This document shows positions 42,326 through 52,301 of a DNA stretch of 64,000 nt, one piece after another. The notes under the pieces are model-generated. The model worked only from the letters and a program-made list of their open reading frames with translations. It was not told where the DNA came from and did not search any database. The stretch's first letter is position 1. Each line of letters begins with the position of its first letter. The stretch is taken from assembly GCF_054482525.1 (NCBI RefSeq), contig NZ_CM137006.1. The stretch is one strand, 5' to 3'. A program made the translations under genes and the position numbers.

Positions 42326-42355
42326 TGCCTGATGCGCTGCGCTTATCAGGCCTAC
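42326..42355. repeat. REP palindromic unit
   Basis: tgcctgatgcgctgcgcttatcaggcctac matches the REP consensus. Confidence 0.75.
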
Positions 42356-42413
42356 TGGGTGAGTTGCAATATATTGAATTTGCACGATCTTGTAGGCCGG
42401 ATAAGGCGTTTAC

Positions 42414-43318
<905 letters not shown>

Positions 43319-43960
43319 TTTTCCAGGAGATGCTCCTGCATGGCTTTCAGATATGCATTTTCTGCGCGAAGATAACGCAGCTCATTCTTCATCTCTTCCG
43401 GCGTCATGTTTGCCTCGTTTTCATGGGTATCATCAGAACGGGTCATGCTTTTCTCCTTCCTGCGCCTGATAAAGGCCTCATTACCAGATTTGCGGTAGCC
43501 TTTTATCCAGTTTTTAACCGTGTTGTGGCTGGGAATGTTAAACCGGGCAGCTACCCGGGGTAGAGACTCAGAATGCCCGAGAGCATAAAGAACCACGCAA
43601 AGTTTATCTTCAGGAGAATAGCTACGCTTGTGTCTGCAATCCAGTGCCCGAGGACCGTGAAGAAGAAAAAGATTAATCCAGTGTGAGAGGCTGGTGTGAG
43701 AAAGTTGAAAGAGTTTTGCCGTAGAAATGATGCCTGCATGACCAGCCAGGTAGTGATTTACAGCGGCAAGTTTTACTTCAAATGAATGTTTCATAAACTG
43801 CACCTTCAGATGTCAGATTATGTCCAACATTTGGGGTGCAGTTCATACGCCGCATCCGGCATGAAACGATGAGCAATCTGTAGAGTTTGATTCAGACCTT
43901 CTATTTTTCCCGCTTATCCGTGCCCCATCTCCCATTTTCCCTCACACGTACCGTCACCGC

Positions 43961-44037
43961 CTTGTCATCTTTCTGACACCTTACTATCTTACAAATGTAA
44001 CAAAAAAGTTATTTTTCTGTAATTCGAGCATGTCATG
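43961..44037 (+). promoter_or_regulatory. ugpB promoter region with Pho-box-like direct repeats
   Basis: cTTGTCATctttCTGACAC and CTGTAATtcgagcaTGTCAT resemble PhoB-binding repeats (CTGTCAT-type 7 bp repeats spaced by 4 bp), 60-140 bp upstream of ugpB. Confidence 0.45.
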
Positions 44038-44097
44038 TTACCCCGCGAGCATAAAACGCGTGAATTCGCGCATTCGGTACAACAAGAGAGATAAACG

Positions 44098-45414: not shown

Positions 45415-45420
45415 TTCTCT

Positions 45421-45575
45421 TACCCTCACCCTAACCCTCTCCCAAAGGGAGAGGGGACCGATCGGCGTGGTATCCAGGTGCCGTGTCGGTTTGCAACTTC
45501 GCTCGGTGGGAAAGTATGCACCGCCTTTCTCCCTCGCCCCTCTGGGGAGAGGGCCGGGGTGAGGGGAACACAACA
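45421..45575. repeat. GC-rich intergenic palindromic repeat (boxC-like), long copy with two inverted arms
   Basis: Left arm ccctcaccctaaccctctccc and right arm gggagagggccggggtgagggg are inverted copies; the left part matches the element at 26250-26300. Confidence 0.5.
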
Positions 45576-52090: not shown

Positions 52091-52180
52091 GCGATCAGGA
52101 AGACCCTCGCGGAGAACCTGAAAGCACGACATTGCTCACATTGCTTCCAGTATTACTTAGCCAGCCGGGTGCTGGCTTTT
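52091..52180 (+). ncRNA. ryhB: Iron-responsive small regulatory RNA RyhB
   Basis: The 90 nt sequence gcgatcaggaagaccctcgcggagaacctgaaagcacgacattgctcacattgcttccagtattacttagccagccgggtgctggctttt matches RyhB as I remember it, ending in a terminator hairpin (gccagccgggtgctggc) plus U-run; lies between yhhY and yhhX. Confidence 0.9.
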
Positions 52181-52301
52181 TTTTGATCTTTCGTTTTCAA
52201 TTTATCCACGGGAAGTGCTTGTGTTCGTTATGCGCACTCCAGTAGGAACCACGTCCGCTTTGCGCTAAGGTGTAAATAATCACCTTAAAAAGGACGAAAT
52301 C

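Follow-up and report, generated by a model that had tools for sequence, protein, structure and literature searches.

The heptamer A_AAA_AAG at positions 43321-43315 is very probably where an intact copy of IS1397, an element of the IS150 group of the IS3 family, carries its programmed −1 ribosomal frameshift site. It lies on the minus strand of the window, by which we mean the whole 64-kb stretch of DNA that was analysed (contig NZ_CM137006.1 of RefSeq assembly GCF_054482525.1). The feature itself is ordinary: public records already contain it, with the correct annotation. What may be new is the departure of IS1397 from the layout that its IS150-group relatives conserve around this site.

The complete element occupies 42414..43845 on the minus strand (1432 bp, TG...CA termini), with bounds given by its inverted repeats and by reconstruction of the empty site. 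The left repeat (IRL, 43821..43845, minus strand, TGAACTGCACCCCAAATGTTGGACA) and the right repeat (IRR, 42414..42438, minus strand, reading TGAACTGAACCCCAAAACCTGGACA on the plus strand) are each 25 nt long, start with TGAAC and are 84% complementary as a pair. As is characteristic of the IS3 family, the TG...CA ends are bordered by a 3-bp direct repeat, one copy at 42411..42413 (TAC on the plus strand, GTA on the minus strand) and the other at 43846..43848 (TAC on the plus strand). Removing the IS together with one TAC restores a K-12-type empty site exactly, which shows that the insertion interrupts the loop of a REP palindromic unit (PU), GCCGGATAAGGCGTT-TAC-GCCGCATCCGGC. The halves of this split unit are found at 42396..42413 (GCCGGATAAGGCGTTTAC) and 43846..43860 (TACGCCGCATCCGGC) and form an inverted repeat spanning the IS, wherein 42396-42409 pairs with 43847-43860; the intact unit is visible in an empty site, locus L082. 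Insertion in a PU loop with duplication of 3-4 bp, here TAC, is the target pattern of IS1397.

The element is located between livF and ugpB and lies within a BIME, where a second palindromic unit (GCCTGATGCGCTGCGCTTATCAGGCCTAC, about 42330-42358) adjoins the split one. This second unit gives weak Rfam matches to the sRNA families ES036 and naRNA4, both of which we take to be REP-derived. The ugpB promoter region (43960-44097) is intact, and transcription of the IS is directed away from ugpB. Further along the window, the ugpB-ugpA intergenic region (45420-45570) contains a G/C-rich boxC-like repeat in two inverted copies (ccctcaccctaaccctctcccaaagggagagggg ... cccctctggggagagggccggggtgagggg), which account for spurious ORFs on both strands, and a full-length RyhB small RNA gene is present at 52120-52184 on the plus strand (Rfam RF00057, 83 bits versus a gathering score of 55).

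At least 25 RefSeq loci bearing the annotation 'IS3-like element IS1397 family transposase' match the element at 100% across its 1432 bp, and such loci occur in many complete E. coli genomes; by way of these annotated loci the element is IS1397, of the IS3 family and IS150 group. Comparison of its length, its 449-aa frameshifted transposase, its PU-loop target and its 3-bp duplication with those of IS1397 revealed no difference. PMC1525189, together with the titles in its reference list, reports PU-specific insertion and activity in K-12 for IS1397; the activity is named in the title of Clement et al. 1999, and the IS1397 work cited there is that of Bachellier, Clement, Wilde and Hofnung. The same paper describes ISKpn1, a REP-specific IS3-family element of Klebsiella pneumoniae for which PU insertion is reported and whose transposase sets the choice of target (PMC1525189). 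ISKpn1 was absent from the protein homologues listed and from the plasmids and genome contigs searched.

Translation of the minus strand reveals two ORFs that follow one another and overlap; orfB is in the −1 frame and the overlap holds the slippery motif, an arrangement typical of the IS3 family. The first of these, orfA (43273..43794, minus strand), encodes 173 amino acids before its stop codon. Its ATG at 43794 is the start chosen by PGAP, and its product carries HTH DNA-binding domains (Pfam HTH_28/HTH_Tnp_1) followed by a Leu-rich coiled-coil region at the C terminus. The −1 frame is open from about IS position 465, roughly 60 nt upstream of the motif, to a stop codon at 42446-42448. For a conceptual −1 fusion, AAG was translated and its G was then used a second time, to begin the codon GCG. 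The 449-aa OrfAB so obtained corresponds to join(43794..43315, 43315..42446) on the minus strand, with G43315 read twice and a second segment of 289 amino acids plus stop (42446..43315, minus strand). For a shift at this heptamer, the predicted junction peptide is ...HLLEKKAPGAGEK....

The first-pass annotation had proposed that the product be translated across the site and compared with IS3-family OrfAB proteins. The fusion proves to match, letter for letter, the NCBI protein "IS3-like element IS1397 family transposase", which is seen on 71 contigs. At this locus in Escherichia coli PCN033, the two-piece PGAP coding sequence WP_100190663.1, labelled 'programmed frameshift', has the same start, end and length. 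The fusion scores 387 bits with the NCBIfam model transpos_IS3 (NF033516), for which the cut-off is 160, and also matches the Pfam families HTH_28, HTH_21, rve (residues 286-384, 75.7 bits) and rve_2. Its DD(35)E core is complete, with 59/35 spacing; the 35-residue interval and the lysine seven residues after the glutamate mark the IS3 family. The catalytic codons, all on the minus strand, are those for D295 (42911..42913, in the context WVTDITE and within the rve match), D355 (42731..42733, LHSDQG) and E391 (42623..42625, NAVMENFFGHLK), the last of which is 35 residues past D355 and is followed at E+7 by K398. The same annotation had held that the slippery site is intact and that both frames are open, a claim at risk from any stop codon lying in the −1 frame ahead of the DDE domain. 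Translation bears the claim out, as no stop falls between the heptamer and the catalytic codons, and it adds the minus-strand orientation, which had gone unstated.

The flagged interval, 43311-43324, reads GGCGCTTTTTTTCC on the plus strand and GGAAAAAAAGCGCC on the minus strand. Here the heptamer (IS positions 525-531) comprises the 3′ part of a run of seven A residues and the G that follows. Its first A occupies the third position of an orfA codon (GAA AAA AAG), which is the phase needed for tandem slippage, and no other X_XXY_YYZ heptamer is in frame anywhere in orfA. The orfA stop is 39 nt downstream, which puts the site within the orfA/orfB overlap, as had originally been noted. The string AAAAAAG is not rare in the window (21 occurrences observed versus 12.5 expected), whereas about 0.006 in-frame occurrences are expected by chance in the overlap of approximately 36 codons. 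Because the bare 7-mer is common, the significance of this one derives from its phase and context.

The motif has the form and phase of the shift-prone X_XXZ_ZZN heptamers defined by Sharma et al. 2014 (PMC4066793). According to that study, the shift-prone tRNA-Lys(UUU) makes A_AAA_AAG one of the three −1 motifs that work most efficiently in E. coli, and 72% of the heptamers in IS1/IS3-family elements are either A_AAA_AAG or A_AAA_AAA. Frameshifting at A_AAA_AAG is about 0.3% without stimulators and much higher with them (PMC4066793).

The arrangement of frames and signals points to the following sequence of events. Most ribosomes translating orfA would terminate 13 codons past the heptamer and release the 173-aa DNA-binding protein OrfA. 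A minority would pause with tRNA-Lys on AAA in the P site and on AAG in the A site, whereupon both tRNAs could slip back by one base onto AAA AAA, leaving GCG as the next codon in the −1 frame. The slip itself and its efficiency are inferred here; it would be favoured because a single tRNA-Lys(UUU) decodes both lysine codons in E. coli and pairs weakly with AAG. Pairing of a GGAG sequence 12 nt upstream with 16S rRNA probably helps, and a modest downstream hairpin possibly does so too. The product would be the 449-aa OrfAB, which joins the HTH part of OrfA to HTH_21 and the DD(35)E core, and which is expected to move the element by IS3-type copy-out/paste-in into the loops of REP palindromic units, leaving 3-bp duplications. 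Transposition in the IS3 family proceeds through figure-eight and minicircle intermediates.

Candidate stimulators were judged by rules that Sharma et al. 2014 derived empirically (PMC4066793), with the hairpin rules re-implemented here. An upstream Shine-Dalgarno (SD)-like element has been shown experimentally to stimulate frameshifting from a distance of 6-17 nt (PMC4066793). The IS1397 sequence places GGAG (43333..43336, minus strand) 12 nt upstream of the heptamer and AGGA at 13 nt, both within this range. The GGAG also forms part of a small upstream hairpin, CAGGAG-CAU-CUCCUG (43324..43338, minus strand, −8.0 kcal/mol), whose z score of −2.0 is not significant. Downstream hairpins are expected to span 17-140 nt, to begin after a spacer of 4-10 nt, to be closed by a G-C pair, to include at least 4 consecutive pairs and to have a stability of at least 7.6 kcal/mol (PMC4066793), and no hairpin that satisfies these rules was found downstream of the IS1397 heptamer. 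Of the downstream stem-loop or pseudoknot anticipated by the first-pass annotation, only a weaker hairpin candidate survives. This 48-nt structure with internal loops (43268..43315, minus strand, −17.6 kcal/mol) begins its pairing at the G of AAG and hence leaves no spacer, and its z score of −3.25 applies to bounds picked after the fold was seen. The inner part of the structure, past a 4-nt spacer, retains −9.8 kcal/mol (z −1.75), and the fold of the whole 122-nt downstream segment is not unusual (z −1.4). No complement of at least 5 nt to the hairpin loop, as a pseudoknot would involve, occurs in the next 140 nt, and Rfam frameshift-element families gave no match at E<=10.

Among five natural variants of IS1397 (98-100% identical), the heptamer and GGAG are invariant; one variant converts a U.G pair to U-A in the inner stem and breaks a C-G pair to C.A in the outer stem. 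These sequences are too alike to put the hairpin to the test. Taken as they stand in the sequence, the signals make the upstream GGAG the likeliest stimulator in IS1397, with the downstream hairpin as a weaker and atypically placed candidate. The dnaX and IS911 signals combine the same A_AAA_AAG with an SD-like element upstream and a stem-loop downstream, and the IS1397 GGAG is within the stimulatory range of 6-17 nt, whereas its downstream structure departs from the spacing and stem rules that were derived from such signals.

A scan of species-representative genomes uncovered 80 loci encoding relatives with 38-57% identity in the best aligned segment, and the frameshift cassettes of 53 distinct IS150-group relatives were compared; IS150 and ISKpn8, at about 43% identity, were taken from plasmids. 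All 53 carry A_AAA_AAG, or in a minority A_AAA_AAA, at the conserved codons for E-N-A-Y-L-K-K. In 47 of the 53, a 10-bp stem of the GCCUUAGUUC/GAACUAAGGC type with at least 9 of 10 pairs starts exactly 6 nt past the heptamer, and its 3′ arm is held at a nearly fixed distance. The stem covaries, as seen in compensatory changes such as GCCUUAACGC/GCGUUAAGGC, ACUUUAGUUC/GAACUAAAGU and GCCUUGACCC/GGGUUAAGGC. The hairpins range from 48 to 113 nt and from −12 to −33 kcal/mol, and when the hairpin rules of Sharma et al. 2014 were applied, IS150 and 13 of 15 relatives tested passed.

IS150 and ISKpn8 share with IS1397 the order of orfA, a −1 shift at A_AAA_AAG and orfB, the same domains, about 43% amino acid identity over OrfAB, and, close to the site, a hairpin of 48 nt and about −17 kcal/mol (in IS150, 48 nt, −17.0 kcal/mol, z −5.2). 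They differ in that their heptamer is at Y-L-K-K and, 6 nt beyond it, a perfect 10-bp stem begins (GCCUUAGCUC/GAGCUAAGGC), while the IS1397 hairpin has internal loops, no spacer and no such stem. IS150 is also not REP-specific. Alignment of the OrfA C termini places the IS1397 heptamer 9 codons further 3′ (ENAYLKAMQEHLLE-KK) than that of the relatives. At the relatives' position IS1397 instead has codons for Y-L-K-A (TAT CTG AAA GCC, 43342..43353, minus strand), which are not slippery. The 10-bp stem 6 nt past the heptamer is absent from IS1397, where the best alternative is 8 of 10 pairs at a spacer of 3-4 nt. Because the heptamer is off the conserved position, homology does not directly vouch for the exact site in IS1397.

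A GGAG at the 12-nt spacing seen in IS1397 is present in 37 of the 53 relatives. The glutamate codon of E-N-A-Y-L-K-K from which it arises is GAG in 41 of 53, compared with 39% GAG at the other glutamate codons of those elements (Fisher p 4e-8, a value that is overstated since the sequences are related). This pattern suggests that the GGAG is a conserved SD-like stimulator across the IS150 group. In the relatives it stands 12 nt ahead of the motif's second base, and the displaced heptamer of IS1397 has a GGAG at the same 12-nt spacing. The codons under the 3′ arm of the IS1397 hairpin (V-I-x-x-L-R in the −1 frame) are homologous to those under the 3′ arm in the relatives, which suggests that the structure formed anew around the displaced site.

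From these comparisons we put at about even odds the proposal that the IS1397 cassette has been rebuilt: relative to the 53 relatives, the heptamer would have moved 27 nt downstream, the covarying hairpin would have been lost, GGAG would have been re-created at 12 nt, and a new, weaker hairpin would reuse the position of the old 3′ arm. We considered loss of the ancestral heptamer by a 9-nt deletion (compare IS150, TATCT[AAAAAAGCT]GAAAGCC) and set it aside, as substitution together with one extra codon would explain the protein alignment just as well. By eye, the segment at 43285-43340 on the minus strand has the look of an imperfect tandem repeat, both in DNA (CAGGAGCATCTCCTGGAAAAAAAGCGC / CAGGAGCTGGAGAAAAAACGAAAG) and in protein (QEHLLEKKR / QELEKKRK), and a local duplication could be the origin of the new slippery site.

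Neither a plasmid tblastn search nor the scan of genome contigs yielded relatives at 57%-99% identity, and the best 120 protein homologues comprise IS1397 variants at 99-100% only, with no intermediates for covariation analysis. Some relatives carry OrfA-like and OrfB-like sequences in one continuous frame, including loci L002 (at 1459-2878), L003, L005 and L006 from Pseudomonas asuensis and loci L042 and L045 from P. oryzihabitans and P. rhizoryzae. Such a frame would yield the full transposase without frameshifting.

Other routes to the transposase were weighed against a ribosomal shift at the flagged heptamer. Ribosomes might instead shift mainly, or additionally, at a second run of six A residues 22 nt downstream (43299-43294, minus strand, GAG AAA AAA CGA), which would give the junction ...RQELEKKTKVI.... 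The run is within the overlap, the −1 frame is open there and a GGAG lies 9 nt upstream, and A_AAA tetramers shift measurably if stimulated (PMC4066793), which makes this run a possible minor alternative shift site. However, it contains no canonical in-phase X_XXY_YYZ heptamer, A_AA.A is the weakest of the active tetramers while A_AAA_AAG is among the best heptamers (PMC4066793), and the first site is the one adopted by PGAP and in the NCBI proteins, so we consider this reading very unlikely. We give still less credence to transcriptional slippage, by which RNA polymerase would add an extra A on the run of seven and thereby bring orfA and orfB into one frame in the mRNA. The motif does reside in such a run, and realignment of this kind is used by some IS3-family members, such as the IS1447 group (PMC6211511). 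Yet the phase of the run is exactly the one that tandem tRNA slippage requires and a G closes it, as is characteristic of a ribosomal motif, and the relatives keep A6G or A7 in phase together with a hairpin spaced by 6 nt, which is a translational signal. Efficient transcriptional slippage in bacteria, moreover, generally needs runs of about 8-9 or more, which counts against slippage on A7.

Least probable of all is that this copy is an inert relic in which the heptamer is merely two lysine codons, with no transposase made and no movement. Such decay does occur, as shown by two degraded copies and by the many genomes with partial matches only, and no sigma-70-like promoter within the element reached the scan threshold. 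IS3-family promoters are typically weak, so a failed scan for consensus promoters is uninformative. Against decay, the copy has no stop or indel, its inverted repeats and duplication are intact, copies at other loci, one of them in the same genome, match it at 100%, and its insertion is confined to 10 of 5,426 genomes. Programmed ribosomal frameshifting at A_AAA_AAG in an intact element remains the reading that we favour.

The distribution of IS1397 bears on whether this element can move. Some match to IS1397 is present in 3,485 of the 5,426 complete genomes, full-length in 1,707 and partial only in 1,778. The two decayed examples are locus L034 (E. coli SCPM-O-B-8794), where an internal deletion joins OrfA residue ~139 to the middle of OrfB, and locus L090 (E. 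coli TUM14771), an annotated pseudogene with an internal stop. The window is 100% identical to E. coli PCN033 over 2,832 bp that take in livF, the IS and ugpB, and the 10 genomes mentioned above are the only ones with an IS at this site. Between caiF and caiE, PCN033 holds a further copy that is 100% identical, and another strain carries a copy between cysE and trmL. Both of these copies are likewise in PU loops and oriented in the same way with respect to the PU, and each has a 3-bp duplication of its own (TGG and AAT). Three independent copies in PU loops, two of them identical within PCN033, thus bear different duplications. The genome searches report IS1397 at 6-7 places in PCN033. Recent movement of IS1397 is plausible because the livF-ugpB insertion is so restricted and because a second identical copy exists. 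The first-pass suggestion that the element can still make its transposase and be active gains support from the intact frames and inverted repeats, the duplication and the identical copies.

These findings leave the genome annotation unchanged, as they concern a textbook IS3-family frameshift in a named element that RefSeq already describes correctly. The livF-ugpB insertion, found in 10 of 5,426 genomes, is a rare marker of a PCN033-like lineage, and an intact, apparently recently mobile, REP-targeting IS bears on ongoing genome plasticity in the strain. On a small scale, IS1397 could also act as a natural experiment on the importance of individual stimulators for A_AAA_AAG frameshifting in E. 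coli. Provided that ribosomes do shift at the new position, the element would offer a natural example of a recoding signal that relocated within an overlap while its upstream stimulator was kept.
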